Part shown: in pieces, positions 9,107 through 61,709 of the stretch
Layout: each line of letters opens with the position of its first letter
Position numbering within the stretch: the first letter of the stretch is position 1
Assembly (NCBI GenBank): GCA_946407735.1
Contig: CAMJPL010000004.1
Coordinates: 6,782 to 70,781, forward strand
Reading direction: 5' to 3'
Length of the DNA stretch: 64,000 bases
Source: an uncultured Clostridia bacterium
GTDB lineage: Bacteria; Bacillota; Clostridia; Oscillospirales; CAG-272
Program-made: the position numbers and the translations under genes
Notes under the pieces: model-generated
Databases searched by the model: none
Seen by the model: the letters and a program-made list of their open reading frames with translations, nothing else
Told to the model about the DNA's origin: nothing

Positions 9107-9128
9107 AATTCAAGATAACTGTTTATAC

Positions 9129-9204
9129 GCGGGGGAAGGAACCACCTTCTGAAGAAGGTGGTTCCTTCCCCCGCACCCCTATCTTCCGACAAGACTTTTA
9201 CTAC
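9129..9204 (+). repeat. Intergenic repeat family, copy 1 (hairpin + conserved tail)
   Basis: Perfect 21-bp stem gcgggggaaggaaccaccttc / gaaggtggttccttcccccgc with loop tgaa, then acccctatcttccgacaagacttttactac. It starts 22 nt after the ackA stop. Confidence 0.8.
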
Positions 9205-9224
9205 TTAACTGATATTATATATAA

Positions 9225-9250
9225 GAAAACCGTGAGAAGCGGTTTTTATA
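9225..9250. terminator. Short bidirectional hairpin between ackA and the convergent amidohydrolase gene
   Basis: aaaaccg tgagaag cggtttt, flanked by A-run and T-run. Confidence 0.45.
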
Positions 9251-15784: not shown

Positions 15785-15865
15785 GCAGGGAGGGGAAGAA
15801 CCCTTTCTGAAGAAAGGGTTCTTCCCCTCCCTGCACCCACCCTATTTCCCAAAGACTTTTACTAC
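15785..15865 (+). repeat. Intergenic repeat family, copy 2 (hairpin + conserved tail)
   Basis: Perfect 23-bp stem gcagggaggggaagaaccctttc / gaaagggttcttcccctccctgc with loop tgaa, then acccaccctatttcccaaagacttttactac. It starts 15 nt after the ilvE stop. Confidence 0.8.
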
Positions 15866-15893: not shown

Positions 15894-16814
15894 ATGCTTC
15901 ACACCGTTACCGCGGAGGAAAACGGGCTGACGATAAAGGAGTATCTCCGCCGTCTCGGCGCGTCCCGCCGGATAGTCAACCGCATGAAGCAGTCGGAGAG
16001 CGGCATCCTGCTGAACGGCGCTCATGTGACGGTCAGAGCCGCGCTCAGGGAGGGAGACATCCTTTCTCTCGCGCTTGAGGACGACAGACCGCCGGAGCCT
16101 GAGACAGCCGTCGGGATTCCGATAATCCGCGCCGATTTTTCATCCTCCGGCGTCAGGATAATATACGAGGACGGCGAGCTTATCGCCTTCTCGAAACCGG
16201 CGGGCATGCCTACGCACATCTCGCACGGACATCTCGGAGACAGCCTTCTGAACGCCGCCGCCGGCCTTTTTTATGAAAGGGGCGAGCCGTTCGTCTTCCG
16301 CCCGGTGAACCGTCTCGATCTTGACACGAGCGGCATCGTGCTGACAGCGAAGGATCAGCTCACCGCATACAGGATGTCAAAGCGTCTGCAGGCGGGAGAG
16401 GTGAAAAAGCGCTACCGCGCCGTTCTGAGCGGCGCAATAGATCCGCCGTCGGGACGCATCGAATCGTATATCAGGCGGCGCGAAGCGAGCATCATCGAGC
16501 GCGTGTCGGCGGATTCCGGCATCGAGAGTGAATATTCCGTCACAGAATACGACACGGTATGGACATCAGCTGACGGCGGCCGCTGCGCCGTCGACTGCTC
16601 GCCGCTCACGGGACGGACGCATCAGCTCAGGGTGCATTTCATGTCGAAAGGGCATCCTATCGTCGGCGACACCCTTTACGGTAAGCCGTCGGACGAGATT
16701 CCGCGTCAGGCGCTCCACGCCTTCGAGCTTTCATTCCCGCACCCGTCGACCGGAGAATACATCACCATCACAGACGAGATACCCGAAGAGATCACAAAGC
16801 TGTGCAGAAACTGA
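15894..16814 (+). CDS. RluA-family pseudouridine synthase
   Basis: S4-like N-terminus, the catalytic motif region RPVNRLDLDTSGIVLTAK, and the C-terminal GRTHQLRVHF motif. Confidence 0.9.
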   Translation: MLHTVTAEENGLTIKEYLRRLGASRRIVNRMKQSESGILLNGAHVTVRAALREGDILSLALEDDRPPEPETAVGIPIIRADFSSSGVRIIYEDGELIAFSKPAGMPTHISHGHLGDSLLNAAAGLFYERGEPFVFRPVNRLDLDTSGIVLTAKDQLTAYRMSKRLQAGEVKKRYRAVLSGAIDPPSGRIESYIRRREASIIERVSADSGIESEYSVTEYDTVWTSADGGRCAVDCSPLTGRTHQLRVHFMSKGHPIVGDTLYGKPSDEIPRQALHAFELSFPHPSTGEYITITDEIPEEITKLCRN

Positions 16815-27340: not shown

Positions 27341-28627
27341 ATGGAAAAGCTTATCGTCAACGGCGGGACGCCTTTAAGGGGCAAAGTCCAGATAAGCGGT
27401 ATGAAAAACGCCGCCCTGCCTATCATCATAGCATCCCTGCTCACCGAAGACGTATGCGTTATCGAGAACCTCCCGGCAATCATAGACGTTTCGCTCGCTC
27501 TGAATATCATGGAGCGCATGGGATGCCGGATAAGGATGCTCAGCGCCGATACGGTCGAGATCGATTCGAGAGGCGCTGTGGGCGGAATAACTCCGGTGGA
27601 ACTTGTCTCACAGATGAGAGCCTCCACATATTTCATGGGCGCCGAGCTGGGGCGCTGGAACGAGTCGAAGGTCGGATATCCCGGCGGATGCGATTTCGGA
27701 GTAAGAGCCATCGACCAGCATATAAAGGCGTTTGAAGCTCTCGGCGCCGAGGTCTCGGTCGACGGCGGCTACGTCCGCTCCAAGGCGGCGGGCGGCCTGC
27801 GCGGAACGAGCATCTATTTCGACGTCGTGACAGTCGGCGGCACCATCAACGCCATGCTCGCCTCCGTCAAGGCGAAGGGCACTACGGTGATAGAGAACGC
27901 CGCGCACGAGCCTCATATAGTCGACACGGCGAACTTCCTCAACACCTGCGGCGCGCATATCACCGGCGCCGGAACAGACACGATCAAGATCCGCGGCGTG
28001 GAAAAGCTGCACGGCTGCACCTACGCCATCATCCCCGACATGATCGAAGCCGGGACATACATGATCGCCGCCGCCGCGACGAGCGGAGCCCTCTTGATCT
28101 CGAACGTCATCCCGAAGCACCTCGAGTCGATCTCGGCAAAGCTGGAGGAGATGGGCGTGCTGATCGAGGAGTATGACGATTCGGTATATGTCACGAGATC
28201 CGGCAAGTTGAATCACGTCAACGTCAAGACCCTTCCCTACCCCGGCTTCCCGACCGACATGCAGCCTCAGATGGGTGTGCTGATGTGTCTCGCCGACGGC
28301 ATGAGCTATCTGTCGGAAACGGTCATCGAAAACCGATTCAAATATGTCAACGAGCTGCAGCGGATGGGCGCGAATATCCGGGTCACCGGACACACCGCCA
28401 TATTCGACGGCGGCGCTCCGCTCACCGGAGCCAAGGTGCGCGCGGTGGATCTGCGCGCCGGAGCCGCGCTCGTGATAGCGGGACTTACCATCCCCGGGAT
28501 CACCGAGATAAGCGAGATCGACCATATAGAGCGCGGATATGAGAATATCGTCGGCAAGCTGACGAACGTCGGAGCCGATATCCGCAAGGTCATATTCAGC
28601 GACAGTCTTGCCGCCGACGAGGCGTAA
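27341..28627 (+). CDS. murA: UDP-N-acetylglucosamine 1-carboxyvinyltransferase
   Basis: MEKLIVNGGTPLRGKVQISGMKNAALPIIIASLL N-terminus and full-length MurA similarity. The track ORF start (27200) lies upstream of the predicted promoter's -10, so ATG 27341 is used. Confidence 0.95.
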   Translation: MEKLIVNGGTPLRGKVQISGMKNAALPIIIASLLTEDVCVIENLPAIIDVSLALNIMERMGCRIRMLSADTVEIDSRGAVGGITPVELVSQMRASTYFMGAELGRWNESKVGYPGGCDFGVRAIDQHIKAFEALGAEVSVDGGYVRSKAAGGLRGTSIYFDVVTVGGTINAMLASVKAKGTTVIENAAHEPHIVDTANFLNTCGAHITGAGTDTIKIRGVEKLHGCTYAIIPDMIEAGTYMIAAAATSGALLISNVIPKHLESISAKLEEMGVLIEEYDDSVYVTRSGKLNHVNVKTLPYPGFPTDMQPQMGVLMCLADGMSYLSETVIENRFKYVNELQRMGANIRVTGHTAIFDGGAPLTGAKVRAVDLRAGAALVIAGLTIPGITEISEIDHIERGYENIVGKLTNVGADIRKVIFSDSLAADEA

Positions 28628-28640
28628 AAAATGAATATCC

Positions 28641-28682
28641 GCAGGGGGAAACCATGCTTTTACAAAAGACGGATTCCCCCTG
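28641..28682 (+). terminator. Long hairpin after murA (putative terminator)
   Basis: cagggggaa ... ttccccctg outer stem with an inner cttttacaaaag hairpin; it starts 14 nt after the murA stop. Confidence 0.45.
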
Positions 28683-28731
28683 TATGCGTTTCAGAGCGTA
28701 AAGCGTCAAACCCGATGGAGCAGGTGATGAT

Positions 28732-33256: not shown

Positions 33257-33286
33257 TAAGACAGTTTAAAGCGTGATATCCAATCA

Positions 33287-33328
33287 GGGAAGGGACTTTT
33301 CAGACAGTCCCTTCCCTTTCTTTTGTTC
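33287..33328 (+). terminator. Intrinsic terminator of the NifU-like/GGGtGRT operon
   Basis: Perfect 11-bp stem gggaagggact / agtcccttccc with an 8-nt loop, followed by tttcttttgttc. Confidence 0.8.
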
Positions 33329-33400
33329 TTTATTCATGATCTTTGTTTTTTGATATTGATGAAAACGGAAAATCCGTCACGGGGGAGCCGAAAGCTGATA

Positions 33401-33467
33401 CAGGGAAGACCGGTCTTCGGTCTTCCCTGTATCGCTGTTTCCCATAATCCAAAAGAGAGTTGCTGCC
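33401..33467 (+). repeat. Possible degenerate relative of the intergenic repeat family
   Basis: 12-bp hairpin cagggaagaccg / cggtcttccctg, followed by tatcgctgtttcccataatccaaaagagagttgctgcc. The tail loosely aligns with the ...tttcccaaagacttttactac / ...gtcccaaaagacttttgatactgcc tails of copies 2 and 3. Confidence 0.3.
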
Positions 33468-36168: not shown

Positions 36169-36343
36169 ACCTTTCCGTTCTCTGATTTGCGATATTATAC
36201 CATATTCGGCGGCGTCAAGCAATGCCCCATTTGAAAAGAATTATCGAAGATTAATGGAAGTATTCACAGGGCGCCGCCGTATAAAACAACACAGGGAGAG
36301 AAAGCAGCGCTTTTCTCTCCCTGTATCCGTTGATATCCGGTCG

Positions 36344-36371
36344 AAAAAGCGGTCCGTAAGGACCGCTTTTT
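36344..36371 (-). terminator. Intrinsic terminator after clpC (symmetrical, could act on both strands)
   Basis: Perfect 12-bp stem aaaaagcggtcc / ggaccgcttttt with loop gtaa. Confidence 0.8.
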
Positions 36372-36389
36372 CAATGAACCGCCGGTTTT

Positions 36390-46535: not shown

Positions 46536-46575
46536 CCGTCCCCTCCGCATCTGCCGGAGGGGACGGCTTTTTCTG
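46536..46575 (+). terminator. Intrinsic terminator
   Basis: Perfect 12-bp stem ccgtcccctccg / cggaggggacgg with a 7-nt loop, followed by ctttttctg. Confidence 0.8.
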
Positions 46576-52115: not shown

Positions 52116-53039
52116 ATGGCTATCAGCGCAAAGGACGTCGCCGAGCTGAGAAGAAAGACCGGCGCCGGCATGATGGAGTGCAAAAAGGCTCTTACCGAAT
52201 CCAACGGCGATTTCGACGAGGCTATCAAGTACCTCCGCGAGAACGGAGTAGCCGTCGCCGCCAAGAAGGCCGACCGCATCGCCGCCGAGGGACGCATTGA
52301 CATCCTCACCGAGGGCGATACCACCGCCATGATCGAGATCAACTGCGAGACCGACTTCGTCGCCAACACCGACGGCTTCAAGGCCTTCTCGAAGAACGTT
52401 CTCACCGCCATCATCGCCAACCGTCCGGCTGACGTAGACGCTCTTCTCGAGTGCAAGTACAGCGACGATCTCACCGTCGGTCAGGCTCTGACCGAGATGA
52501 TCGCCAACACCAAGGAGAACACCAAGATCCGCCGCTTCGTCATCGTCGACGGACTCGTCTCCACCTATATCCACGGCAACGGCGTCACCGGCGTCGTCGT
52601 CAAGTTCGATACCGATCCCGCCATCGCCGGGACCGACGGCTTCAAGGAGTACGCGAAGAACGTAGCCCTCCAGATTGCCGCCATGAACTGCCTGTATCTC
52701 GACCGTGACTCCGTTCCTCAGTCGGCCATCGACGAGGAGAAGGAAGTCATCATGAAGACCATCCAGAACGATCCCAAGAACGCCAGCAAGCCCGCCGCCA
52801 TCCTCGAGAAGATGGCCGTCGGTCGTCTCGGCAAGTTCTATGAGACCTACTGCCTGGTGGATCAGCTCTATATCAAGGACGACTCGATAACCGTCGGCAA
52901 GTACACCGAAGCCACCGCCAAGGCTTTCGGCGGCGACATCAAGATCACCGCTTACGTCCGCTACGACAAGGGCGAGGGACTTGAGAAGCGCTCCGACAAC
53001 CTTGCCGCCGAGATCGACAAGCTCGTGAACAAAAAGTAA
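52116..53039 (+). CDS. tsf: Translation elongation factor Ts
   Basis: ISAKDVAELRRKTGAGMMECKKAL UBA-like N-terminus and full-length EF-Ts. Confidence 0.97.
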   Translation: MAISAKDVAELRRKTGAGMMECKKALTESNGDFDEAIKYLRENGVAVAAKKADRIAAEGRIDILTEGDTTAMIEINCETDFVANTDGFKAFSKNVLTAIIANRPADVDALLECKYSDDLTVGQALTEMIANTKENTKIRRFVIVDGLVSTYIHGNGVTGVVVKFDTDPAIAGTDGFKEYAKNVALQIAAMNCLYLDRDSVPQSAIDEEKEVIMKTIQNDPKNASKPAAILEKMAVGRLGKFYETYCLVDQLYIKDDSITVGKYTEATAKAFGGDIKITAYVRYDKGEGLEKRSDNLAAEIDKLVNKK

Positions 53040-53170
53040 AATACTTATCTAAAGAGAGGGACGCCTTAAAAGGGTGTCCCTCTCTCGCTGATACGGCACA
53101 CTCCCGCCGGGCGATGAGGCTTACCCGGCCGCTGTACTAATAAATTTACGGAATTTCTTTCAAATAGACC

Positions 53171-53199
53171 TTTACAAACAGCGGCCGATGTGGTAAACT
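53171..53199 (+). promoter_or_regulatory. Sigma-70-type promoter (extended -10) for pyrH
   Basis: TTTACA (53171-53176), 17-nt spacer, TGTGGTAAACT with TAAACT at 53194-53199. Confidence 0.5.
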
Positions 53200-53241
53200 G
53201 TTATATGAATAATAATTTTGAAAGGCATGGTATTAACCGTC

Positions 53242-53973
53242 ATGGCAACTGAAGCTACCGCCAATCAGACCAGATACAAACGAATCCTGCTCAAGCTTTC
53301 CGGCGAGGCGCTGGCGAGCGGAGGCAGAAACGTGCTCAATTACGACATCGTCTCCGAGATCTGCCGTCAGATAGTCGCCGTAAAGGAGCTCGGCGTCCAG
53401 ATCGGCATCGTCGTAGGCGGCGGCAATATCTGGCGCGGCCGGCAGGGCGAAAAGATGGACCGCACCAGAGCCGATCACATGGGAATGATCGCGACCACCT
53501 TCAACTCCCTCGCCCTTCAGGACAGCTTTGAGCAGCTCGGCGTCGAGAGCCGCGTCATGACAGCCATCGAGATGAAGCAGTTCGCCGAGCCTTATATCCG
53601 CAACAAGGCTGTGCATCACCTCAACAACGGACGCATAGTCATCTTCGGATGCGGCATCGGCAACCCGTTCTTCTCGACCGACACCGCCGCCGTCATGCGC
53701 GCAGCCGAGATCGGCGCCGACATCGTCATGATGGCGAAAAACATCGACGGCGTCTATACGGCCGATCCCCGCAAGGATCCGACCGCCGTCAAGCTCGACA
53801 CCGTGGATTACAAATATATCCTGCAGAACGAGCTGACCGTCATCGACTCGACTGCCGCCTCGTTCAGCCGCGAGAACAACATCCCGCTTCTCATCTTCGG
53901 TCTGGACGATCCCTACAACATCGTCCGCGCCGTGAAGGGCGAGAAGATCGGGACTGTGGTGGAAAACATATAA
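53242..53973 (+). CDS. pyrH: UMP kinase
   Basis: YKRILLKLSGEAL, GGGNIWRG, and a full-length amino-acid-kinase fold. The start is uncertain: ATG 53242 is preferred, with alternatives 53227 and 53218. Confidence 0.93.
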   Translation: MATEATANQTRYKRILLKLSGEALASGGRNVLNYDIVSEICRQIVAVKELGVQIGIVVGGGNIWRGRQGEKMDRTRADHMGMIATTFNSLALQDSFEQLGVESRVMTAIEMKQFAEPYIRNKAVHHLNNGRIVIFGCGIGNPFFSTDTAAVMRAAEIGADIVMMAKNIDGVYTADPRKDPTAVKLDTVDYKYILQNELTVIDSTAASFSRENNIPLLIFGLDDPYNIVRAVKGEKIGTVVENI

Positions 53974-53987
53974 ATATCTCTTAATTT

Positions 53988-54068
53988 GGGGAAGGGGAGA
54001 CCCTTTTCTGAAGAAAATGGTCTCCCCTTCCTAAGACCTCATCCCTGTCCCAAAAGACTTTTGATACT
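53988..54068 (+). repeat. Intergenic repeat family, copy 3 (hairpin + conserved tail)
   Basis: 19-bp stem ggaaggggagacccttttc / gaaaatggtctccccttcc (one mismatch) with loop tgaa, then taagacctcatccctgtcccaaaagacttttgatac. The hairpin starts 16 nt after the pyrH stop. Confidence 0.75.
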
Positions 54069-54111
54069 GCCAGAATTATAAAAAACGCCATTATATAGAA
54101 AGGAACGCATC

Positions 54112-54666
54112 ATGAAGCTCGAAACAAAATCCTACGAAGAGAAGATGAAGAAGTCGATCTCCATCTACGAGCACGATCTTCAGACTATACGCGCCGGACG
54201 CGCCAACCCCGCCGTCCTTGACAACATCACCGTCGACTATTACGGCACTCCCTCCCCGATCCAGAACACCGCCAACATCGCTGTCCCGGACGCCCGCACC
54301 ATCACCATCACCCCGTGGGAGAAAAAGATGCTGAATGAGATCACGAAGGCTATCCAGGCCTCCGATCTCGGCATAAACCCGACAAACGACGGCAAGGTGA
54401 TCCGTCTCGTCTTCCCGCAGCCCACCGAGGAGCGCCGCAAGGAGCTCACCAAGCAGGTCATGAAGAAGGGCGAGGAAGCCAAGGTCAACATCCGCAACAT
54501 CCGCCGCGAGGCGAACGACAAGATCAAGGACATGAAGAAGAAGTCCGAGATCACCGAGGACGAGCAGAAGATCTCCGAAAAAGACGTTCAGGATCTCACC
54601 GACAAGTACATCAAGGAGATCGACGCGATCACCGCCGACAAGAACAAGGAGATCATGGAGATCTGA
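54112..54666 (+). CDS. frr: Ribosome recycling factor
   Basis: Canonical RRF (LQTIRAGRANPAVLDNITVDYYG...). Confidence 0.97.
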   Translation: MKLETKSYEEKMKKSISIYEHDLQTIRAGRANPAVLDNITVDYYGTPSPIQNTANIAVPDARTITITPWEKKMLNEITKAIQASDLGINPTNDGKVIRLVFPQPTEERRKELTKQVMKKGEEAKVNIRNIRREANDKIKDMKKKSEITEDEQKISEKDVQDLTDKYIKEIDAITADKNKEIMEI

Positions 54667-54680
54667 CCAGTCCGGAAGAT

Positions 54681-55376
54681 ATGAGTCAGCCAAACGCTCA
54701 GAATGTCCGCCATTTAGCCTTCATAATGGACGGAAACGGCCGATGGGCCCAAAGCCGCGGCATGCCGAGGGAATTCGGGCACAAGGAAGGCGCGAAGGTT
54801 TTTCGCCGTCTCGCCGAATACTGCTCCGATATCGGCATCGGCTGCGTCACCACCTACGCCCTGTCGACCGAAAACCTCAAAAACCGCTCCAGAGCCGAGC
54901 TCGCGGCGCTGTTCATACTGCTCAAGGAATATCTCAAGGACGCGATGGTTACCGCGCCGAAAAACGATACTCAGGTGAAGATCATCGGCGACCATTCGCC
55001 GCTTCCGGCGGATCTCCGCGAAATGATAAAAACCGTCGAGCGGGAGACCTCGATCTATCACAAGCGCCTGAACATCGCCGTGAACTACGGAGGGCGGGAC
55101 GAGATAGTCCGCGCCGTTAACAGGCTCATAGCCGACGGGCATACGCATATAACCGAAGAAGACATCGACTCGGCGCTTGACACCGGCGGCTGTCCGCCGC
55201 CGGATATGATCATACGCACCGGCTGCGAGATAAGGGTATCGAACTTCCTGCTCTGGCAGTCGGCGTATTCCGAGTATTATTTTACCGACACTCTGTGGCC
55301 CGATCTCACCGAAGAGGAGATAAACAGAGCCTTAGATGATTTCAATTCCAGACACCGCCGCTTCGGCGGCGCGTAA
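54681..55376 (+). CDS. uppS: Isoprenyl transferase (undecaprenyl diphosphate synthase)
   Basis: HLAFIMDGNGRWA, IRTGCEIRVSNFLLWQSAYSEYYF. Confidence 0.95.
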   Translation: MSQPNAQNVRHLAFIMDGNGRWAQSRGMPREFGHKEGAKVFRRLAEYCSDIGIGCVTTYALSTENLKNRSRAELAALFILLKEYLKDAMVTAPKNDTQVKIIGDHSPLPADLREMIKTVERETSIYHKRLNIAVNYGGRDEIVRAVNRLIADGHTHITEEDIDSALDTGGCPPPDMIIRTGCEIRVSNFLLWQSAYSEYYFTDTLWPDLTEEEINRALDDFNSRHRRFGGA

Positions 55377-55391
55377 CTGACGGGACTTCCT

Positions 55392-56327
55392 ATGAACAAT
55401 TCGACCATCCCGGAAAAACCGGCTGAGGGTGAGGGCGCGAAGAAAAAAGACGGCGGCTCGATGAGACGCCGGATACTGACGGCAGTGATAGCGATACCGC
55501 TCCTGATCGCGTATTTCTATTTTCTTTCCGGCACCCCCGGAATGCCGATCATCGTCGCGGCGGCGAGCTGCGCAGCCTCATACGAGCTGCTGAAATGCGT
55601 CGGATACCATAAGAATCCGGCAGTCGCCGTGCCGACGTACATGTTCGCCGCGGCGATACCCTTCTGCGCCCGCCGTCCTGACGAGCAGTACATCTTCCTC
55701 GGCCTGTTCTTCTTCATCTCGTTCATATACATGTTCTATATGCTCTCCGCCGCCGTCATGAGCAAGGTGGCGTTCAAGGTGGAGGACATCGCCGTCCTCT
55801 ACATGATGGAGACGTATATGATCTTCGGCTTCACGTCGATAATCCTGCTCCGCGATATGGAAAACGGCAGTCTGCTGTACTGGCTTCCCTTCGTTTCGGC
55901 GTGGATGACGGACGCCGGAGGGTATTTCATAGGAAGGGTGTTCGGCAGGCACAAGCTCGTGGAGCACATAAGCCCGAAAAAGACCGTCGAGGGCGCGATA
56001 GGCGGCGTGATATTCTCCGTCGTGACATTTGTCGTTTACGCCTTCGTCGTCGGGCTGATCTTCGACGTCGTGCCGAACTATCTCTTCGCCTGCGTGCTCG
56101 GCGTCATCATAGCCGTGGTATCTCAGCTAGGCGATCTCATCGCGTCGCTTGTCAAGCGCCGCTACAGCATCAAGGATTACGGGAACCTGATACCCGGCCA
56201 CGGCGGGATGATGGACAGATGCGACTCTGTGATCGCCACGGCGCCGTTCATTTATCTGATATGCTCGCTCACCGTTCTGCTCTCGAACTTCTTCCATATA
56301 GCGCCGTCCTTTTTCCTGTTCAGGTAA
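55392..56327 (+). CDS. cdsA: Phosphatidate cytidylyltransferase
   Basis: Polytopic membrane protein with the CdsA signature SLVKRRYSIKDYGNLIPGHGGMMDRCDS. The start could be the internal ATG at 55461. Confidence 0.9.
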   Translation: MNNSTIPEKPAEGEGAKKKDGGSMRRRILTAVIAIPLLIAYFYFLSGTPGMPIIVAAASCAASYELLKCVGYHKNPAVAVPTYMFAAAIPFCARRPDEQYIFLGLFFFISFIYMFYMLSAAVMSKVAFKVEDIAVLYMMETYMIFGFTSIILLRDMENGSLLYWLPFVSAWMTDAGGYFIGRVFGRHKLVEHISPKKTVEGAIGGVIFSVVTFVVYAFVVGLIFDVVPNYLFACVLGVIIAVVSQLGDLIASLVKRRYSIKDYGNLIPGHGGMMDRCDSVIATAPFIYLICSLTVLLSNFFHIAPSFFLFR

Positions 56328-56336
56328 AAATCAGAA

Positions 56337-57485
56337 ATGGATAATCGTATTTCCGTGCTCGGCTGCACAGGCTCCGTCGGACGACAGGCACTTGACGTTG
56401 CCAGGCATTTCGGGATACCGGTCGCGGCGCTCGCCGCAGGACGAAACGTTCGCGCCGCCGAGGAGACGGCGCGGATTTTTCATCCGGACATCATAGCGAT
56501 GGCCGATGAAAATGCGGCCCGCGATCTGAAAACGGCGCTTGCCGACACCGACATCAGCGTCCTTTCGGGAACTGCCGGCGTCGAATACGCCGCCGCATAT
56601 GAAAAATCAGACATCGTCGTGAACGCCGTATCGGGCGTCGCCGGTCTCGCTCCGACGCTGTCGGCGCTGAGAAAAGGCAAAAAGCTGGCTCTCGCCAACA
56701 AGGAATCGCTTGTGGCGGCTGGAGATATCGTCATGGAGACGGCGAAAGACTCGGGCGCCGCCATCATACCCGTCGATTCGGAGCACAGCGCCATATTCCA
56801 GTGTCTTCACGCCGAAAAAAGACCCGAAAGGCTTATCATCACCTGCTCGGGAGGTCCTTTTTACGGCAGGAGCGCCGATGAGCTTTCCTCCGTTACCTCC
56901 GCCGACGCGCTCGCGCATCCGACGTGGAACATGGGTCCGAGGATCACCGTCGACTCTGCTACTCTGATGAACAAAGGCTTTGAAGTCATTGAAGCGGCGC
57001 GTCTGTTCGGATTCGCGGCGGAGAGCATAGACGTGACGGTGCACCGCGAGAGCATCGTGCACTCGATGGTACAGTTCGCCGACGGCTCGGTGAAGGCCCT
57101 GATGTCGCCTCCCGACATGCGTCTCTGCGTGATGTACGCGCTTTCGTACCCCGACCGCTTCGAGGCGGGGGATTTCATGAAGCGTCTCGATTTCGGCTCG
57201 TCATTCTCGCTGTCGTTCGCTCCGCCCGACACATCGGTATTCCCGCTCCTCCCGCTCGCCTATGAGTGTCTAAGGAGGGGAGGCGTGTACGGAGCCGCGC
57301 TGAACGGCGCGGACGAGCGCGCCGTCGGACTCTTCCTTGAAGGGAAGATCTCATTTACCGACATTGTCAGATCTGTCGAGAAAGCCGCTCTGACGGCTCC
57401 CGAAATAAAAGCCCCGTCTCTCAGCGACATATATGAGGCCGACAAAGAGGCGAGACGCCGTGTGGACGAATTTTTTTCATGCTGA
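56337..57485 (+). CDS. dxr: 1-deoxy-D-xylulose 5-phosphate reductoisomerase
   Basis: ISVLGCTGSVGRQALDV NADPH-binding N-terminus, LANKESLV, PVDSEHSAIFQC. Confidence 0.95.
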   Translation: MDNRISVLGCTGSVGRQALDVARHFGIPVAALAAGRNVRAAEETARIFHPDIIAMADENAARDLKTALADTDISVLSGTAGVEYAAAYEKSDIVVNAVSGVAGLAPTLSALRKGKKLALANKESLVAAGDIVMETAKDSGAAIIPVDSEHSAIFQCLHAEKRPERLIITCSGGPFYGRSADELSSVTSADALAHPTWNMGPRITVDSATLMNKGFEVIEAARLFGFAAESIDVTVHRESIVHSMVQFADGSVKALMSPPDMRLCVMYALSYPDRFEAGDFMKRLDFGSSFSLSFAPPDTSVFPLLPLAYECLRRGGVYGAALNGADERAVGLFLEGKISFTDIVRSVEKAALTAPEIKAPSLSDIYEADKEARRRVDEFFSC

Positions 57486-57512
57486 CACATCTGCCGCCCG
57501 GAGGCGATAACA

Positions 57513-58538
57513 ATTAACATAGTAATAGCGATAATCATTTTCGGCGTCCTGATATTCATCCATGAGCTCGGGCATTACACCTGGGCGAGGATATTCAGGG
57601 TGAAGATATTCGAGTTCAGCATCGGCATGGGCCCGAAGCTGATATCAAAGCAGTCGGAGAAGACCGGCATAGCCTATTCCCTGAGAGCCCTTCCCATCGG
57701 CGGCTTCGTGCAGATGGCAGGCGAGGACGACGAATCCGACGATCCGAACGCGCTGAACAAGAAGCCGGTATGGCAGAGGATGATCATCATCTCCGCCGGA
57801 GCCGTCATGAACCTGCTTCTCGGGTTCATAATCATGTGTCTCGTTTCGCTTACCGCCCGAAACCTCGGATCTACGCAGATCTACAAATTCGCCGTCGAGG
57901 ATTCGACGACGCAGGCGTCCGGACTGATGGAGAACGATATCATCGTAAAGGTCGGAGAATCTAAGGTACACACGGCGACCGACATGGTGTACGAGATAAT
58001 GTACGGCGCCGTCGACCCGATAGATATCACCGTGATAAGGAACGGCGAGACTGTCGAGATACCGGACGTGCGCTTCCCTACCATAATCGAGCAGGGGCAC
58101 GTCTTCGGCGACGTCGATTTCTACGTCCGTCCCGTCGAGAAGAATTTCGTCAGCATAGTACATCAGTCATGGTTCAACTCGATAAGCTCGATGAAGATGA
58201 TCTGGATGTCGCTGATCGATCTCGCGCGCGGAAAATACAGCGTTTCGGACATGTCTGGACCCGTCGGCGTCACGACGGCGGTAGCCGAGGCAGCTTCGTC
58301 CGGGATACACGATCTTCTGTATCTCACCGCGATAATCACGATAAACCTCGGCATTTTCAATCTGCTTCCCTTCCCGGCTCTTGACGGAGGACATATACTG
58401 TTCCTTCTCATCGAGCTTGTGATAAGGCGGCCGGTCCCGGTAAAGGTGCAGTCATACGTGAATCTGGCCGGTATGGCTCTGCTCATGGTCCTGATGGCTG
58501 TGGTAACCTTCCAGGATATAGGCCGTCTGATCTCCTGA
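57513..58538 (+). CDS. rseP: RIP (site-2) zinc metalloprotease RseP/RasP; the start is inferred to be a non-canonical ATT
   Basis: The in-frame sequence upstream of the track's GTG (57600) encodes NIVIAIIIFGVLIFIHELGHYTWARIF, i.e. TM1 plus the HExxH zinc site that all RseP proteins carry at residues ~15-25. There is no ATG, GTG or TTG in frame between the stop at 57483-57485 and 57600. GGAGG (57500-57504) sits 8 nt before ATT 57513. A PDZ domain and the NLLPFPALDGG motif lie downstream. Confidence 0.85.
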   Translation: MNIVIAIIIFGVLIFIHELGHYTWARIFRVKIFEFSIGMGPKLISKQSEKTGIAYSLRALPIGGFVQMAGEDDESDDPNALNKKPVWQRMIIISAGAVMNLLLGFIIMCLVSLTARNLGSTQIYKFAVEDSTTQASGLMENDIIVKVGESKVHTATDMVYEIMYGAVDPIDITVIRNGETVEIPDVRFPTIIEQGHVFGDVDFYVRPVEKNFVSIVHQSWFNSISSMKMIWMSLIDLARGKYSVSDMSGPVGVTTAVAEAASSGIHDLLYLTAIITINLGIFNLLPFPALDGGHILFLLIELVIRRPVPVKVQSYVNLAGMALLMVLMAVVTFQDIGRLIS

Positions 58539-58582
58539 CAGCGCGGTAATTATTGTCTTAAATCTATCAGAGGTTAATCTTC

Positions 58583-59467
58583 ATGTACAGAATCATAGCC
58601 ACCTGGAAATTCGCGCTTTCCGCCGTGACGATGGGAGCCAAAGTCCTATCCTCCGGCGGCAGGGCGCTTGACGCCGCCGAAGCCGGGATTAGGCTCACCG
58701 AGAGCGATCCTGACATCGACTGCGTCGGTCTGGGCGGGTTTCTCAACCGCGACGGCGAGCTTGAGCTCGACGCCGCCGTCATGGACGGCGACACGCTGAA
58801 AACGGGAGCCGTGATCGGCATAAAAAACTATGAGCATCCGATAACCGTCGCCCGCGCGGTAATGGAAAAGACGATGCACAACATCCTCGTCGGCCGGGGC
58901 GCCGAGAGCTTCGCGCGTGAGATCGGCATCGAAAGCCGTCCCATGCTCGATATGATCACTCCCGGCGCGAGAAAGCTCTGGGAGGAAAAGCGCGCCGAAA
59001 AAGCCGCCGCGTCGGGCCATGACACGATAGGTTTTCTGGCGCTCGACAGCCATGGGAGCATCGTGTCCGCCACCTCGACAAGCGGCATGGGTATGAAACT
59101 GCCGGGGCGATCCGGCGACTCGCCGATCATCGGCAGCGGTTTTTACGCCGAAAGCGGCGTCGGTGCCGCCTCGGCGACCGGCTGGGGCGAGGACATCATG
59201 CGGACCTGCATGAGCTTCCGCATGACGGAAATGATCCGCGCCGGCGCCGACCCGCAGAAGGCGGCCGATACCGCCGTCATTACCGCCTGCGAGACGATGA
59301 TACGGCACGGAACAAAGCCGAGAGAGATGGCCGTGATATGCCTTGACGCAGACGGCAGGATCGGCGCGGCCTGCAACCACAAGGGCTTCGCGTATGTGAC
59401 CGCCTGCGAAGGCGGGGAGCCGACAACAGTAGACGTTGAGCCGATAATCGACAAGGACACTCTCTGA
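58583..59467 (+). CDS. Ntn-hydrolase of the asparaginase-2 family (glycosylasparaginase / isoaspartyl peptidase-like)
   Basis: The autoprocessing site region GHDTIGFLALDSHGSIVSATSTSGMGMKLPGRSGDSPIIGSGFYA is typical of N4-(beta-N-acetylglucosaminyl)-L-asparaginase-type enzymes. No signal peptide. Confidence 0.85.
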   Translation: MYRIIATWKFALSAVTMGAKVLSSGGRALDAAEAGIRLTESDPDIDCVGLGGFLNRDGELELDAAVMDGDTLKTGAVIGIKNYEHPITVARAVMEKTMHNILVGRGAESFAREIGIESRPMLDMITPGARKLWEEKRAEKAAASGHDTIGFLALDSHGSIVSATSTSGMGMKLPGRSGDSPIIGSGFYAESGVGAASATGWGEDIMRTCMSFRMTEMIRAGADPQKAADTAVITACETMIRHGTKPREMAVICLDADGRIGAACNHKGFAYVTACEGGEPTTVDVEPIIDKDTL

Positions 59468-59496
59468 TATCTGTCATCACAGAGAAAGGATCACTC

Positions 59497-60534
59497 ATGA
59501 AAGGCAACGATCACATCAAGGAACCGATAATCCCCTGCAATCCGCCTGTCTACCGCGCCGTAAAAAGCAAGATAAAGCCGGGAAAGCTCGACGGTGATCT
59601 GACGAAGGATTTCTGGAAGCAGGGCGAATGGATAACCGAATTCCACGACATAGAGGGCGACAGTCTGCCCCGCCCGTGGAAGGCGACCCGCGTAAAGGTA
59701 CTCTGGGACGACGAGGCGATATATGTCGGTGCCGAGCTTACCGACGACACGATATGGGCCTATGTGACCGAGCGCGACGACGTTATCTTCGCCGACAACG
59801 ATTTCGAGGTCTTCCTATCGCCCGAGGACTGCGGCCACAGATATTACGAGCTTGAGATGAACGCCAGGAACACGGTGTGGGACCTTTACATGGAGCGCCC
59901 GCAGCGCGACCATGTCCGCCGCATCATCGCGTGGGACATCCGCGGTCTCGAGTCGGCGACAAAGATAAACGGCGAGCTGAACAATCCCTCCGCCGACAAC
60001 AGATCGTGGTCGCTTGAGCTGAAGCTGCCCTATTATTCCTTCCGCGAATGCCCGGACGGATACGTGAAGGCTCCGAAGCTCACGCCAGATGTCGGCGAGA
60101 CATGGCGCATGGACTTCTCCCGCGTCGAGTGGGAGGTGGACGTTGTCGACGGGAAATATGTCAAGCGCACCGGAGAGAACGGAAAGCCTCTTCCCGAGCA
60201 CAACTGGCTCTGGGCTCCTACCGGCGTCATCGACGCTCACATGCCTGAGATGTGGGGATATCTCATCTTCACCGAGAACGGCGAGGATCATCCGCTGCCG
60301 CCCGAAGACAAGGTCAAATTCGTCCTGCGAAAGCTCTATTACCGCGAGCACAGATACAGCTGCGAGCACAGCGAGTTCACGTCTGACGCCGCCGCTCTGC
60401 TCGGGGACGAGGCTGCCGAATACAAGGTGAAGGCATACGTCACCCCGAACATGTTCGAAGGCATCGCCGAGCATGACGGGCAGATCTGGCATATCGATCA
60501 GGACGGCTACATGTGGACCGGAGAACACAGATAA
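59497..60534 (+). CDS. Cytoplasmic CBM9-like/DOMON-like carbohydrate-binding family protein
   Basis: DGDLTKDFWKQGEWITEFHDIEG...VKVLWDDEAIYVGAELTDDTIWAYVTERDDVIFADNDFEVFLSP...YYELEMNARNTVWD matches the CBM9-like_1 pattern as I recall it. Confidence 0.6.
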   Translation: MKGNDHIKEPIIPCNPPVYRAVKSKIKPGKLDGDLTKDFWKQGEWITEFHDIEGDSLPRPWKATRVKVLWDDEAIYVGAELTDDTIWAYVTERDDVIFADNDFEVFLSPEDCGHRYYELEMNARNTVWDLYMERPQRDHVRRIIAWDIRGLESATKINGELNNPSADNRSWSLELKLPYYSFRECPDGYVKAPKLTPDVGETWRMDFSRVEWEVDVVDGKYVKRTGENGKPLPEHNWLWAPTGVIDAHMPEMWGYLIFTENGEDHPLPPEDKVKFVLRKLYYREHRYSCEHSEFTSDAAALLGDEAAEYKVKAYVTPNMFEGIAEHDGQIWHIDQDGYMWTGEHR

Positions 60535-60546
60535 AACGATCATACC

Positions 60547-60623
60547 GGGGGGAAGGAAAGATATTTTGAGTAAAATTTCTTTTCTCCCCTCCGCCCGATA
60601 ATATTCAAAAAGACTATTACTGC
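60547..60623 (+). repeat. Intergenic repeat family, copy 4 (degenerate hairpin + conserved tail)
   Basis: Imperfect stem gggggaaggaaagatatttt / aaaatttcttttctcccctcc with loop gagt, then gcccgataatattcaaaaagactattactgc. It starts 12 nt after the upstream stop and ends 6 nt before the ispG ATG. Confidence 0.65.
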
Positions 60624-60629
60624 TTTTTA

Positions 60630-61709
60630 ATGGAAAACAATCGCTTTTCGAGACGCTCATCGCGGACCGTAAAGGTCGGACATGTGACCGTCGGCGGATC
60701 GTCGCCGGTTTCGGTGCAGTCGATGACAAATACCGATCCGCACGACGCCCGGGCGACGTCAGATCAGATAAAACGTCTCTCCGCCGCCGGATGCGATATC
60801 GTGAGGCTGGCGATACCTGACATGGAAGCGGCCGAGACCTTCGGTCTTATCCGCGAGGAATGTCCGTCGGTGCCGCTCGTCGCCGACATCCATTTCGATT
60901 ACCGTCTCGCGCTCGCCGTCGCCGAGCGGGGCGTCGACAAGATACGCATAAATCCCGGAAATATCGGCTCTGACGAAAATGTCAGAGCCGTTGCAAAAGC
61001 CTGCCGCGAGAGGAACATCCCGATCCGCATAGGCGTGAACAGCGGATCGGCCGAAAAATCGCTGATCGAAAAATACGGCGGCCCGACCGCCGAGGCGCTC
61101 GCCGAAAGCGCGATGTATCACGCGCGTCTGCTAGAAAGATACGATTTCGGCGACATTATCATCGCCGTAAAGGCGTCGGACGTCCCGACGACGGTCGCAG
61201 CCGTACGTCAGGTCGCCTGTTTGTGCGATTATCCGCTGCATGTCGGCGTCACCGAGGCCGGCAGCGAATACGGCGGGATAATAAAATCAGCCGCCGGTAT
61301 CGGGACCCTGCTTATGGAGGGAATCGGCGACACGATCCGTGTCTCGCTCACCGCCGAGCCCGAAAAGGAGGTCACTGCCGGGATCACGCTTTTAAAGGCG
61401 CTCGGCCTTAGAAAGGGACCGAATATCGTTTCCTGCCCGTCATGCGGAAGGACGAAGATCGACCTTTTCTCCATCGTCTCGGAATTTGAGCGCCGCGCTC
61501 CTGTCGAGATCGAAGGATGGAACGATCTCGGCATCACGGTCGCCGTGATGGGCTGCATCGTAAACGGACCGGGCGAGGCGTCAAACGCCGACATCGGTCT
61601 CGCCGGGGGCAGCGGCAGAGCCGCCGTCTTCAAGGGCGGAAAAGTGATCTTCAGCGTCGACGAGGACAAAGCCGTAGACGCTCTCATATACGAGATAAAG
61701 AAGCTGTGA
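60630..61709 (+). CDS. ispG: 4-hydroxy-3-methylbut-2-en-1-yl diphosphate synthase (flavodoxin)
   Basis: RTVKVGHVTVGGSSPVSVQSMTNTD, RINPGNIG, and the C-terminal Cys cluster SCPSCGRT...GCIVNGPGE. Confidence 0.95.
   Translation: MENNRFSRRSSRTVKVGHVTVGGSSPVSVQSMTNTDPHDARATSDQIKRLSAAGCDIVRLAIPDMEAAETFGLIREECPSVPLVADIHFDYRLALAVAERGVDKIRINPGNIGSDENVRAVAKACRERNIPIRIGVNSGSAEKSLIEKYGGPTAEALAESAMYHARLLERYDFGDIIIAVKASDVPTTVAAVRQVACLCDYPLHVGVTEAGSEYGGIIKSAAGIGTLLMEGIGDTIRVSLTAEPEKEVTAGITLLKALGLRKGPNIVSCPSCGRTKIDLFSIVSEFERRAPVEIEGWNDLGITVAVMGCIVNGPGEASNADIGLAGGSGRAAVFKGGKVIFSVDEDKAVDALIYEIKKL

Follow-up and report, generated by a model that had tools for sequence, protein, structure and literature searches.

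A dispersed gene-end repeat of gut and rumen bacteria and a phage with the sequence signature of a three-stranded fold

The window (the whole stretch of DNA that was analysed, 64,000 nt) contains four copies of an intergenic element, all on the + strand (Table 1). The focal copy lies 3′ of ilvE (stop codon 15767-15769), and the next gene, encoding an RluD-like pseudouridine synthase, starts at 15894. The other copies follow ackA, pyrH and a CBM9-like gene, and the identities of the four upstream genes (acetate kinase, class IV aminotransferase, UMP kinase and CBM9-domain protein) were confirmed. The original prediction placed each copy just past a stop codon, and the hairpins indeed start 22, 15, 14 and 11 nt downstream of the stop codons of ackA, ilvE, pyrH and the CBM9-like gene, respectively. 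A census using a covariance model built from 36 family members returned exactly four sites in the window, all on the + strand with E ≤ 7e-9, and these are the four co-oriented copies at the positions predicted. Two suggested weaker relatives were not supported by the model, with 33393-33463 scoring 14.6 bits (E = 0.16) and 36292-36323 scoring 8.2 bits (E = 5.8). The site 28624-28686 was also found not to be a family member in the model search. The gene order in the window includes tsf-pyrH-frr-uppS-cdsA-dxr-rseP...ispG, which may weakly point to a clostridial genome; an origin in Bacteroidota was considered and dropped.

Table 1. Copies of the element in the window, their parts, and a neighbouring terminator.
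Feature	Coordinates	Strand	Evidence
Focal copy	15785..15865	+	Model match 15786-15862, 81 bits, E = 1.5e-17
Focal 5′ arm, GCAGGGAGGGGAAGAACCCTTTC; outer part purine-rich, inner part CCCTTTC	15785..15807	+	23 perfect pairs
Focal TGAA loop	15808..15811	+	Sequence and fold; nearly invariant family-wide
Focal 3′ arm, outer part pyrimidine-rich	15812..15834	+	Sequence and fold
Focal third strand, ACCCACCCTATTTCCCAAAGACTT	15835..15858	+	Parallel complement of 5′ arm and loop (mirror of 3′ arm), alignment score 9
Focal tail end, TTACTAC	15859..15865	+	Sequence comparison
Copy after ackA (ORF end 9106)	9129..9204	+	21 perfect pairs; model match 68.7 bits
Parts of ackA copy	5′ arm 9129-9149; loop 9150-9153; 3′ arm 9154-9174; third strand 9175-9197; tail 9198-9204	+	Sequence, fold and third-strand alignment
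Copy between pyrH (end 53973) and frr (start 54112)	53988..54067	+	Model match 67.2 bits; third-strand alignment and triads
Parts of pyrH copy	5′ arm 53988-54008; loop 54009-54012; 3′ arm 54013-54031; linker 54032-54036; third strand 54037-54060; tail 54061-54067	+	
Degenerate copy between CBM9-like gene (end 60534) and ispG/gcpE (start 60630)	60546..60623	+	Model match 45 bits, E = 7e-9
Parts of CBM9 copy	5′ arm 60546-60567; loop ~60568-60571; 3′ arm 60572-60593; eroded third strand and tail 60594-60623	+	
Bidirectional terminator hairpin of the ordinary T-tract type	9225..9247	.	Terminator scan; 20 nt past ackA copy

The stems of the ackA, ilvE, pyrH and CBM9 copies span 21 bp, 23 bp, 19 bp with a single mismatch and, imperfectly paired, about 20 bp, with RNA folding energies of -46.4, -50.0, -35.0 and -24.8 kcal/mol and z-scores against shuffled sequences of -9.2, -8.4, -3.8 and -2.5, respectively. 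The mismatch at T54018 in the pyrH copy is taken to be derived, because the stem is perfect in other strains. The stem sequences differ from copy to copy. A TGAA loop, predicted for every copy, is present in three of the four, and the fourth has TGAG/GAGU. Across 36 copies, 93.8% of the stem cells are paired and 15 of the 17 pairs change on both sides, giving a covariation score of 0.628, compared to a shuffled mean of 0.272 (0 of 500 shuffles reach the observed value) and to 0.13-0.39 in slid registers. The element is thus, as proposed, a dispersed intergenic unit with a covarying hairpin. The apex and the tail are nearly invariant across the family. Two window copies carry the tail AAGACTTTTACTAC without change, and the remaining two depart from it by 2 mismatches; of its end, TTACTAC, TTA is common to the family and CTAC is peculiar to the copies of this genome.

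The "C-rich spacer" and "conserved tail" that follow the hairpin form one strand that complements the 5′ arm and loop in parallel orientation, from the base of the stem to the TGAA loop. The original prediction was that the spacer could pair with the G-rich 5′ arm as an alternative structure. The complementarity between the two is instead parallel, with an anchored score of 8.6, compared to 2.4 for a reversed-arm control and 1.0 for mono-shuffled third strands. Antiparallel pairing was rejected: its best registers, with G-U allowed, were no better than the low-complexity background, and the minimum-energy fold leaves the spacer unpaired. Nor is the ~35-nt tail a separate module lacking a structural role, since it continues the third strand, with TTTC-TGAA set against AAAG-ACTT.

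Family members are laid out as a purine arm and its loop, a pyrimidine arm, a short linker and a third strand, the last mirroring the 3′ arm up to the loop (...CCCCCTTTCC-AAAG-ACTT), and then TTA. Their 5′ arm has a purine-rich (G/A) outer part and an inner part resembling CCTTTC. The loop is 4 nt (TGAA), and the linker is 0-3 nt in most copies and ~20 nt where a small hairpin is inserted. This is the block order and polarity of an intrastrand triplex (R arm, loop, Y arm, linker, mirror strand), and the loop and most linkers are as short as the inter-block loops of 1-6 nt used in the ITxF search. In the focal copy, the terminal ACTT of the third strand faces the TGAA loop, and 14-15 of the 19 aligned positions are canonical triads, with 3 further C:C at the junction. 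The ackA copy has 15-16 canonical triads in 22 positions, and the CBM9 copy has kept the matching only in the inner part.

In the parallel alignment of 78 unique copies, G faces C at 503 of 537 positions, A faces T at 382 of 453, and T faces A at 349 of 359. Canonical triads account for 1312-1346 of the 1522 aligned positions, and a further 116 are C:C at the junction, where many copies have a bulged C. Copies within a genome are related, so that these counts are not independent events; as a partial remedy, third strands were scored against their own and mismatched arms using one copy per genome (33 genomes or sources) and the unconstrained outer parts only. The own-arm score was 7.24, compared to 4.23 ± 0.27 for mismatched partners (z = 10.9), and the highest of 20,000 derangements reached 5.36. 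The relation is also specific in register, with ungapped alignments peaking at 65-75% at register 0/+1 and falling to 26-40% at ±3-4. Among all hairpins of at least 12 bp in the loci compared, scores of 9-23 are obtained for family members and of at most 7 for other hairpins or for the opposite strand of the family hairpins, apart from a few unrelated AT-rich hairpins at 8-9.

Changes in the stem are accompanied by changes in the third strand. The lengths of the inner T-run and the tail A-run agree as 3/3 (n = 49), 4/4 (n = 13), 5/5 (n = 2) and 2/2 (n = 2), and are discordant in 7 cases; stem and third strand are altered together in the variant copies L192, L156, L232 and L182. In L198, a copy from a Lawsonia MAG the sequence of which is not mirror-symmetric, GGAGGGGGGAAGGAGAAAC faces CCTCCCCCCTTCCTC-TTC, which settles the polarity of the third-strand relation. 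Evidence for natural triple helices usually consists of composition alone, and base-for-base covariation of a third strand with its hairpin across dozens of genomes supports a three-stranded fold with a directness that is unusual for comparative data. The layout is the signature of such a triple-helix fold, the formation of which is predicted from it.

These results bear on a simpler explanation, that the element is an ordinary REP/MITE-type palindromic repeat without third-strand pairing, in which the spacer and tail would be bound by a protein, such as a transposase or a host factor, or would belong to a terminal inverted repeat, and the resemblance to the arm would be a by-product of low-complexity G/C-rich sequence. 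We consider this very improbable. Homopurine and homopyrimidine runs do give partial matches in any register, a near-invariant apex and tail resemble a protein site, and in several genomes the module forms the outer part of tail-to-tail pairs or lies in a unit with 16-bp terminal inverted repeats. However, the mirror relation is specific to the copy and the register, far exceeds that of mono-shuffled sequences, and is also found in the non-symmetric L198 and L182. Mirror repeats would moreover not be expected from any known copying process or from dimeric protein symmetry. A G-quadruplex or i-motif was also considered by eye and rejected, as four runs are absent from most copies and the matching A/T positions would be left unexplained.

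The element belongs to a large, previously undescribed repeat family of gut and rumen bacteria and a phage. Relatives were found by a pattern scan of GTDB genomes and IMG/VR; the first pattern for the viral scan was too loose, with about 109 of its 113 matches arising by chance and 3 being true copies. The family comprises repeats of 65-90 nt in dozens of genomes from several phyla and in a phage. Hosts include Ruminococcus and other Clostridia, Desulfovibrio, Mailhella, Bilophila, Lawsonia, Lentisphaeria, Victivallaceae, and Planctomycetota and Pseudomonadota MAGs. The covariance model gave 116 matches at E ≤ 1e-6 in 538 kb of family loci, counted per strand. Consistent with the expectation that no named RNA family would fit, Rfam at gathering thresholds gave 0 matches in the window and 0 in 18 copy-bearing loci, and a low-threshold scan of the focal region returned generic miRNA-type hairpin noise only. 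A literature search by the literal element sequence gave no match, and one on triplex themes found only work on BoxC/TMECO.

Placement relative to genes was examined in the 56 modules with enough flanking sequence. A co-oriented ORF of at least 120 codons ends within 80 nt upstream in 40 of them, and an opposite-strand ORF ends within 80 nt past the tail in 11; the exclusive cases number 32 and 3, respectively. The predicted dependence of orientation on the upstream gene thus holds across the family. Modules lie 4-72 nt past the stop codon of the co-oriented gene (median ~22 nt). Of 20 upstream ORFs tested, 18 are real, mutually unrelated genes, and no functional theme was found among the 20. 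The phage contig carries its module after the portal gene, between co-oriented genes. A Bacteroides-type promoter in the tail was considered and dropped, as a sigma-70 promoter scan found nothing at the element tails.

With intrinsic (Rho-independent) terminators the module shares a G/C-rich hairpin past a stop codon and a downstream T-run, but the T-run lies 25-40 nt past the stem, compared to 0-2 nt in terminators, and the stem is 2-3 times the usual length. No T-run directly follows the stem in the window copies, where the C-rich third strand is found instead; the intrinsic terminator arrangement, a G/C-rich stem with a T-rich tract within 0-2 nt, is thus absent, and the original view that this is not a plain terminator is upheld. 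At the focal hairpin, a terminator scan made a call on the opposite strand only. The window does contain standard terminators at other sites: the hairpin at 9225..9247 indicates that they are in use in this genome, and places the ackA module upstream of one. An early impression from a few cases, that canonical terminators usually follow the module, was abandoned after a strict scan found one within 160 nt downstream of 6 of 60 modules, compared to 1 of 60 controls.

The T-run raises the alternative of a triplex-assisted terminator, in which the third strand, at the ACUUUUA run, would zip onto the preformed hairpin up to the loop and extract the U-rich RNA from the hybrid, doing the job of stem completion in a standard terminator. 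This fits the T4-6 run, which always lies directly 3′ of the last third-strand base, the sense-oriented modules at gene ends, the tail-to-tail pairs found between convergent genes, the small fraction of modules followed by a strict canonical terminator, and an apex and tail nearly invariant across phyla, as expected for action on the universal RNA polymerase. We nevertheless regard it as improbable. In several copies the gap to the next co-oriented gene is too short to hold a promoter (window copies, 7, 29 and 44 nt; L198, 5 nt; phage, 16 nt), implying that read-through must occur, and a standard terminator is present behind the ackA copy. Pairing of the inner third strand would also demand a purine-motif triplex in RNA, a structure stated not to form, and the E. 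coli PIT elements lack terminator activity (PMC4666352).

The family also has several features of a mobile repeat. One IlvE relative at 78% identity has an empty site, and another at 79% carries a module with a different stem; presence and absence vary between close relatives, and assemblies break at the element. In other genomes, modules lie within MITE-like units of 200-330 nt with inverted ends and multiple near-identical copies per genome, some with 16-bp terminal inverted repeats, and modules also occur in tail-to-tail pairs. The family is probably maintained as a mobile repeat that MITE-like composites and phages carry along. It marks horizontal exchange among gut and rumen bacteria, and it causes metagenome assemblies to break at predictable places. 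The REP/MITE-like character originally suggested is a fair functional analogy, and these composites, with their filled and empty sites in close relatives, resemble MITEs of the Correia/ERIC type. The window copies, however, are solo and differ in their stems, and inspection of the four by eye found no terminal inverted repeats and no consistent target-site duplication or flanking direct repeat.

The closest known elements are the BoxC/PIT/TMECO repeats of E. coli and other Proteobacteria (PIT, potential intrastrand triplex), described by Holder et al. 2015 (PMC4666352), who define intrastrand triplex classes I-IV and cite PIT/BoxC work by Hoyne et al. 2000. Like the new family, they are dispersed, strictly intergenic, G/C-rich repeats, with pyrimidine, purine and (reverse-)Hoogsteen blocks consecutive on one strand, the last mirroring another, and with an A/T mixture in the Hoogsteen block opposite A-T pairs. 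They also share occasional inverted pairs, copy numbers that vary in close relatives, and the lack of a link to gene function. The TMECO consensus, CCCTCNCCC N3-6 GGGNGAGGG N3 GGGNGAGGG (PMC4666352), had 0 matches in the window and 0 in 322 family loci.

Several features set the new family apart from TMECO. Its blocks are 17-27 nt, compared to 9, and the element is 2-3 times longer. Its topology is class III when the sense strand is read and class I when the G-rich strand is read, whereas TMECO is class II on the G-rich strand, with a pyrimidine-motif counterpart on the C-rich strand. The purine strand changes arms at mid-stem, so that the third strand must combine both motifs. A conserved TGAA loop is accompanied by a conserved AAAGACTTTTA tail reaching the loop, and then a T-run. 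It occurs in anaerobes of the gut and rumen from several phyla and in a phage, and the modules are strongly co-oriented with the upstream gene and close to its stop codon, while TMECO shows no trend in orientation or distance (PMC4666352).

In the predicted fold, each third-strand base would lie beside a base pair with which it could form a triad through the major groove. For the sense strand or its transcript, the pyrimidine motif (C+.G-C, U/T.A-U/T) would apply to the outer part and the purine motif (A.A-T, G.G-C) to the inner part; if the complementary G-rich DNA strand folds instead, the motifs would be exchanged between outer and inner parts. Either strand would thus give an alternate-strand triplex with its crossover at the CC junction. 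To our knowledge, a design that joins the two triplex motifs at a change of strand has otherwise been described only for synthetic oligonucleotides.

The best explanation, which we hold with about even confidence, is a horizontally spread repeat with an intrastrand-triplex motif that acts as a REP-like gene-end barrier in the 3′ UTR and is carried by a mobile repeat. The module would be transcribed within the 3′ UTR of the upstream gene or the intercistronic region, and a hairpin of 20 bp or more, clamped by the third strand, would present a barrier to 3′→5′ exonucleases, and perhaps also a pause site for polymerase. REPs have been proposed to shield upstream mRNA from 3′ exonucleases. Like the new family, the REP/BIME elements of enterobacteria are short extragenic palindromes in many copies, after genes or within operons, and REPs are transcribed. 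REPs differ in being ~35-bp palindromes with a GTAG tetranucleotide beside the stem, dependent on a RAYT transposase, whereas the new family has a longer stem followed by the mirror-image third strand. Two window copies do have CTAC at the end of the tail, but at a distance of 31 nt from the stem, and the family as a whole does not conserve it.

While we favor the gene-end barrier as the function, its close rival is a DNA-only triplex repeat of the BoxC/PIT type, which we consider possible, though less probable. It would fold on the single-stranded G-rich strand (the - strand of the window) in the class I layout (reverse-Hoogsteen, purine and pyrimidine blocks), transiently during replication, repair or transcription, with no role in RNA; the element would then be selfish or a source of genome instability. 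On this strand, all common triads are canonical, G.G-C, A.A-T and T.A-T in the outer part and T.A-T and C+.G-C in the inner part. The 34 third-strand A residues that face A-T pairs, read as A opposite A on the sense strand, become the allowed T.A-T, the forbidden T opposite T occurs at 0 of 359 positions, and long C+ runs are avoided. The presence/absence differences, the assembly breaks, and the lack of a functional theme among upstream genes also suit such a repeat. TMECO, the only relatives studied experimentally, form a triplex in vitro on the single G-rich strand, and none was detected in vivo (PMC4666352).

The DNA-only account is harder to reconcile with the strong co-orientation (32 vs 3) and tight spacing past stop codons, neither of which is seen in TMECO, and with the module kept by a phage between co-oriented genes. 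Stem mismatches on the sense strand (24 G:T, 11 A:C) also favor sense-strand folding by about 2:1. G-rich non-template strands may block transcription, and the orientation bias might be explained if insertions placing the G-rich, triplex-prone strand as the non-template strand of an active gene did so and were lost.

We also considered an alternate-strand triple helix acting in the transcript, a bacterial and phage counterpart of the eukaryotic and viral ENE/MALAT1 triple helices that stabilize 3′ ends, which seems unlikely. The hairpin and third strand would fold co-transcriptionally just past the stop codon and define where the message ends, through a block to exonucleases or through help to RNA polymerase in stopping at the U-run; action on universal machinery would explain passage between phyla. 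As in ENE/MALAT1, major-groove triples would arise at the transcript 3′ end between a hairpin and a strand further downstream in one RNA. In ENEs a U-rich internal loop clamps an A-rich tail (U.A-U), while in the new family a full purine-pyrimidine stem would be read by a C/U-rich, then A-rich strand. We know of no bacterial ENE. Against any transcript triplex, including that of the gene-end barrier favored above, the outer part demands runs of 4-6 protonated cytosines, unfavorable at neutral pH, and the 34 A residues facing A-T pairs are non-canonical on the sense strand. The purine motif of the inner part counts against it as well, a purine-motif triplex being stated not to form in RNA; E. 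coli PIT/TMECO moreover showed no promoter or terminator activity, and no stable triplex was found in vivo (PMC4666352).

Given the clear gene polarity and gene-end position of the new family, a role in the formation or stability of transcript 3′ ends is directly testable, unlike for BoxC/TMECO. Cultured hosts of the family include Bilophila wadsworthia ATCC 49260, Ruminococcus sp. YE71 and Desulfovibrio sp. 7SRBS1.

Sequence inspection confirmed four copies of the module, a ~80-nt intergenic repeat, in the window, all on the + strand, at the positions of the original prediction and with hairpins starting just after stop codons (see table). The loop is TGAA in three of the four, and a version of AAGACTTTTACTAC lies ~20-27 nt past the stem in every copy. 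Folding energies of the hairpins are about -50 to -25 kcal/mol, with the ackA, ilvE and pyrH copies well under shuffled controls. A covariance model built from 36 family members and run on the 64-kb window matched precisely these four sites (E <= 7e-9), in agreement with the predicted census. Two regions proposed as weaker relatives were left out of the count because their model scores were weak (14.6 bits, E = 0.16 and 8.2 bits, E = 5.8). Neither the window nor any of 18 related loci matched an Rfam 15 family, consistent with the earlier failure to name an RNA family. The copies are fixed within the window's species, for which gut metagenome contigs are the only known source, and the pyrH stem is perfect in other strains. 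The hexamer TAACTG flanks the ackA copy on both sides. No comparable direct repeat was seen around the other three window copies, and the pair is therefore probably due to chance rather than target-site duplication.

Coordinates of the module copies and of other features in the window, and of a module in a phage contig
Feature	Coordinates	Strand	Upstream gene	Stop codon to hairpin (nt)	Hairpin or sequence
ackA copy	9129-9204	+	acetate kinase	22	21 bp
TAACTG pair	9113-9118, 9206-9211				TAACTG
ilvE copy	15785-15865	+	class IV aminotransferase	15	23 bp
pyrH copy	53988-54067	+	UMP kinase	14	19 bp, one mismatch
CBM9 copy	60546-60623	+	CBM9-domain protein	11	~20 bp, imperfect
First proposed weaker relative	33401-33467 region				
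Second proposed weaker relative	36292-36323				
Weak model match	28624-28686	-			CAGGGGGAATCCGTCTTT-TGTA-AAAGCATGGTTTCCCCCTG
Other intergenic hairpin	33286-33317				
Other intergenic hairpin	33397-33433				
Other intergenic hairpin	36289-36326				
Other intergenic hairpin	36341-36374				
Other intergenic hairpin	46536-46566				
tsf to ispG gene cluster	52116-61709				
Module in phage contig L090	5813-5885	-	T7-type portal gene (PF12236)	~260	

IMG/VR and one genome per GTDB species were scanned with a loop + tail pattern; variation in those parts is under-sampled because they seeded the scan. Many true relatives are present among the matches listed, whose hosts include Ruminococcus, other Clostridia, Desulfovibrio, Mailhella, Bilophila, Lawsonia, Lentisphaeria, Victivallaceae, Planctomycetota and MAGs labelled Pseudomonadota. 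Nearly all derive from gut or rumen samples, and three hosts among the matches listed are cultured (Bilophila wadsworthia ATCC 49260, Ruminococcus sp. YE71, Desulfovibrio sp. 7SRBS1). Across 538 kb of related loci, the covariance model gave 116 matches with E <= 1e-6, counted per strand; some are the opposite-strand reading of a palindromic hairpin already counted, and others are copies unselected by the pattern. Family counts also include related copies. The predicted stem covariation was upheld in 36 diverse copies: 93.8% of cells form pairs, both bases vary in 15 of 17 pairs, and the covariation score is 0.628, compared with 0.272 in shuffles (0/500 reach the observed value) and 0.13-0.39 in slid registers.

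The original prediction described a C-rich spacer and a conserved tail after the hairpin. The aligned copies show that the two are no independent module but one continuation that mirrors the 3' arm: the sequence after the 3' arm, read 5'->3', is the complement of the 5' arm also read 5'->3', and the relation runs on through the inner stem and loop (TTTC-TGAA opposite AAAG-ACTT). The clearest case of this third strand is locus L198, where 5' arm GGAGGGGGGAAGGAGAAAC-TTTC-TGAA stands opposite CCTCCCCCCTTCCTC-TTC-AAAG-ACTT; because this arm is not mirror-symmetric, the parallel polarity is unambiguous. At the aligned positions of 78 unique copies, G is opposite C in 503/537, A opposite T in 382/453 and T opposite A in 349/359; the two C's of the purine/pyrimidine junction are opposite C in 116 cases, and the C that closes the loop is opposite G in 78. 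Third strand length rises with stem length, and in 66 of 73 copies the inner T-run is as long as the tail A-run. Linkers measure 0-3 nt, or ~20 nt where a small hairpin of varying sequence (e.g., TCTTCCGTAGGAAGA, AGCTTTGCTTCGCAAAGCT) is inserted exactly between 3' arm and third strand, acting as an enlarged linker (L122, L123, L134, L154, L205, L229 and L232 from Ruminococcus sp. YE71; L120, L201, L214 and L188).

Real third strands scored 8.6 for parallel matching and mono-shuffled ones 1.0. The reversed-arm control scored 2.4 against the same 8.6, contrary to the earlier suggestion that the spacer pairs with the 5' arm in antiparallel Watson-Crick fashion. Among hairpins of >= 12 bp in the loci, family members score 9-23 and other hairpins <= 7, apart from a few unrelated AT-rich ones at 8-9; read on the opposite strand, family hairpins score <= 7. 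In ungapped alignment the match is best at register 0/+1, where it reaches 65-75%; a shift of three or four columns reduces it to 26-40%. Own and exchanged partners were compared using one copy per genome from 33 sources, restricted to the outer portions of arm and third strand, which are left unconstrained by the search pattern. Own pairs scored 7.24 and mismatched pairs 4.23 +/- 0.27 (maximum 5.36 in 20,000 derangements, z = 10.9). Variant copies alter both partners jointly: CTTT-TGAA-AAAG goes with an AAA-ACTT tail, and loop TAGC with inner stem CGCTCTTTG goes with third strand CCGAGAAAGC. These covariation tests speak against a plain palindromic repeat that forms no triplex, which we consider highly improbable.

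Mirror repeats would be produced by no known copying process and required by no known protein symmetry, and a third strand in the major groove is the sole physical arrangement that forces a base-to-base-pair match in parallel polarity. Judged from sequence, the blocks come in the order of an intrastrand triplex motif (purine arm, loop and pyrimidine arm, then a short linker and a third strand that runs parallel to the purine arm), and it is very probable that the family has this architecture. The sense strand is class III in the scheme of Holder et al. (PMC4666352), and the complementary strand reads as class I. The purine-rich stem strand swaps sides mid-stem, with outer purines on the 5' arm and inner GAAAG on the 3' arm, and there the third strand likewise passes from C/T to A/G, with the result that one polarity fits both halves. 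On the sense strand, the outer half would form a pyrimidine motif and the inner half a purine motif; on the G-rich antisense DNA, the predicted motifs are purine outside and pyrimidine inside. Triad rules score 1312/1522 positions as canonical on the sense and 1346/1522 on the antisense strand, a further 116 being C:C at the junction. At the junction, the 3' arm of many copies contains a bulged C, which may be a hinge letting the third strand cross the groove; a single bulged C (GGTT-C-TCCCC) is kept across phyla exactly at the arm switch (e.g., L161 6643, L149 111, L221 2029). The window copies are weaker examples of the motif than other members, with ~14-16 of 18-22 positions fitting in the first three and the fourth eroded.

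This structural kind is known from the BoxC, PIT and TMECO elements, of which 3610 copies are reported in 262 proteobacterial genomes (PMC4666352). The present family lies outside that group: the BoxC/PIT/TMECO consensus is absent from the window and the loci, and class and topology differ. Its blocks are 2-3 times longer, its fold needs the strand switch, its loop and tail are conserved, and it is polar relative to genes, whereas TMECO is non-polar. No description of the family was found in Rfam or, with literal sequence searches included, in the searchable literature.

Placement was analysed for 56 modules with >= 450 nt on both sides, using frames of >= 120 codons and an 80-nt limit. A same-strand open frame ends upstream of the hairpin in 40/56 (4-72 nt, median ~22), and an opposite-strand frame ends past the tail in only 11/56. 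Exclusive cases number 32 versus 3, supporting the predicted co-orientation with the upstream gene (sign test ~4e-7 by our own arithmetic, the copies not being fully independent). Pfam domains occur in 18 of 20 such upstream frames, which are unrelated ordinary genes (GyrA, GatB, MnmA, sigma-54 activator, DctQ, amylase and others). Several modules nearly fill the space between two co-oriented genes: the next gene lies 29, 44 and 7 nt away for window copies, 5 nt for L198 and 16 nt for the phage copy. Transcription must therefore read through them. These tight operon junctions, together with unfavourable chemistry, make a true triplex terminator quite improbable, although a U-run directly adjoins the third strand. 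A strict terminator lies <= 160 nt downstream in only 6/60 modules; the ackA copy has a standard one. Tail-to-tail module pairs 150-400 nt apart occur in many genomes.

The triad chemistry favours a DNA-only, BoxC-like element, whose polarity would be the orientation that transcription tolerates. Read on the G-rich DNA strand, the 34 A's of the third strand that stand opposite A-T pairs give allowed T.A-T triads, the sole forbidden pairing (T opposite T, inner part) occurs at 0/359 positions, and runs of protonated cytosine are not needed. In vitro the TMECO triplex is formed by the G-rich strand of the DNA, and RNA reportedly does not form purine-motif triplexes (PMC4666352). Placement relative to genes, however, favours the sense strand or transcript, as do the optional inserted hairpin, a type of variation seen in structured RNAs, and, weakly, the stem mismatches on the sense strand (G:T 24 versus A:C 11). 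We consider the DNA-only reading rather unlikely, and a role at gene ends at the RNA level possible but still somewhat doubtful.

The architecture, its covariation, the polarity and the spread are observations; for the module's working we propose a gene-end barrier, which we judge about as likely as not. The module would be transcribed along with the upstream gene and act in a REP-like manner, as a very stable structure in which the third strand clamps the hairpin. Clamped in this way, the hairpin would impede 3'->5' exonucleases and might also make polymerases pause.

The family may be maintained as a mobile repeat. The module is contained in a 230-nt unit in Ruminococcus RGIG9177 (L127, L132, L161, L164, L230), which also contains a second module, inverted and diverged, and a long hairpin at its centre with T6 after it; in a ~270-nt unit with 16-bp terminal inverted repeats CAGGGCAATCGCTTAC in Clostridia RGIG6788 (L129-L222); and in 207-bp tandem units with a further GC-rich hairpin in Desulfovibrio STF2_139 (L131, L133, L189, L223). 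Copies of these larger units are near-identical. No transposase or target duplication was found for the family. A relative of IlvE with 78% identity has an empty site, only 10 nt separating ilvE from the next gene; one with 79% identity has a module 17 nt past the stop with a different stem, and more distant relatives have ordinary terminators. An identical apex including the bulged C occurs in Clostridia, Desulfovibrionaceae, Planctomycetota and viral contigs, which points to common descent and horizontal transfer. The phage contig L090 module lies 16 nt ahead of the next gene and is co-oriented with both neighbours. Two other IMG/VR contigs carry the module (L023, L081). Its presence in IMG/VR contigs makes phages a plausible vehicle between hosts. 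Modules are frequent end points of metagenome contigs from the window's species, and contigs of this species and a relative stop inside or beside them after ilvE (L003-L005), before frr (L318-L322) and in L234. Because independent contigs end there, the module breaks short-read assemblies, through repetition or a coverage drop at the hairpin.

The weak model match in the window (16.5 bits, E = 0.057) was rejected: this intergenic hairpin resembles the family in its outer stem; the loop is TGTA, and nothing downstream matches as a mirror strand. It may represent either a decayed family member or a terminator with no relation to the family. The mirror strand is also absent from the five other intergenic hairpins in the table (parallel scores <= 5). 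The 5' arm is G-rich in several of these (AGGGAAGGGAC..., ACAGGGAAGACC...), and ordinary T-tract terminators are among them. The gene order around the pyrH and CBM9 copies (tsf, pyrH, frr, uppS, cdsA, dxr, rseP-like, ..., CBM9-like, ispG) speaks against a Bacteroidota origin and weakly suggests Clostridia, being of a type that we take to be associated with Firmicutes/Clostridia.
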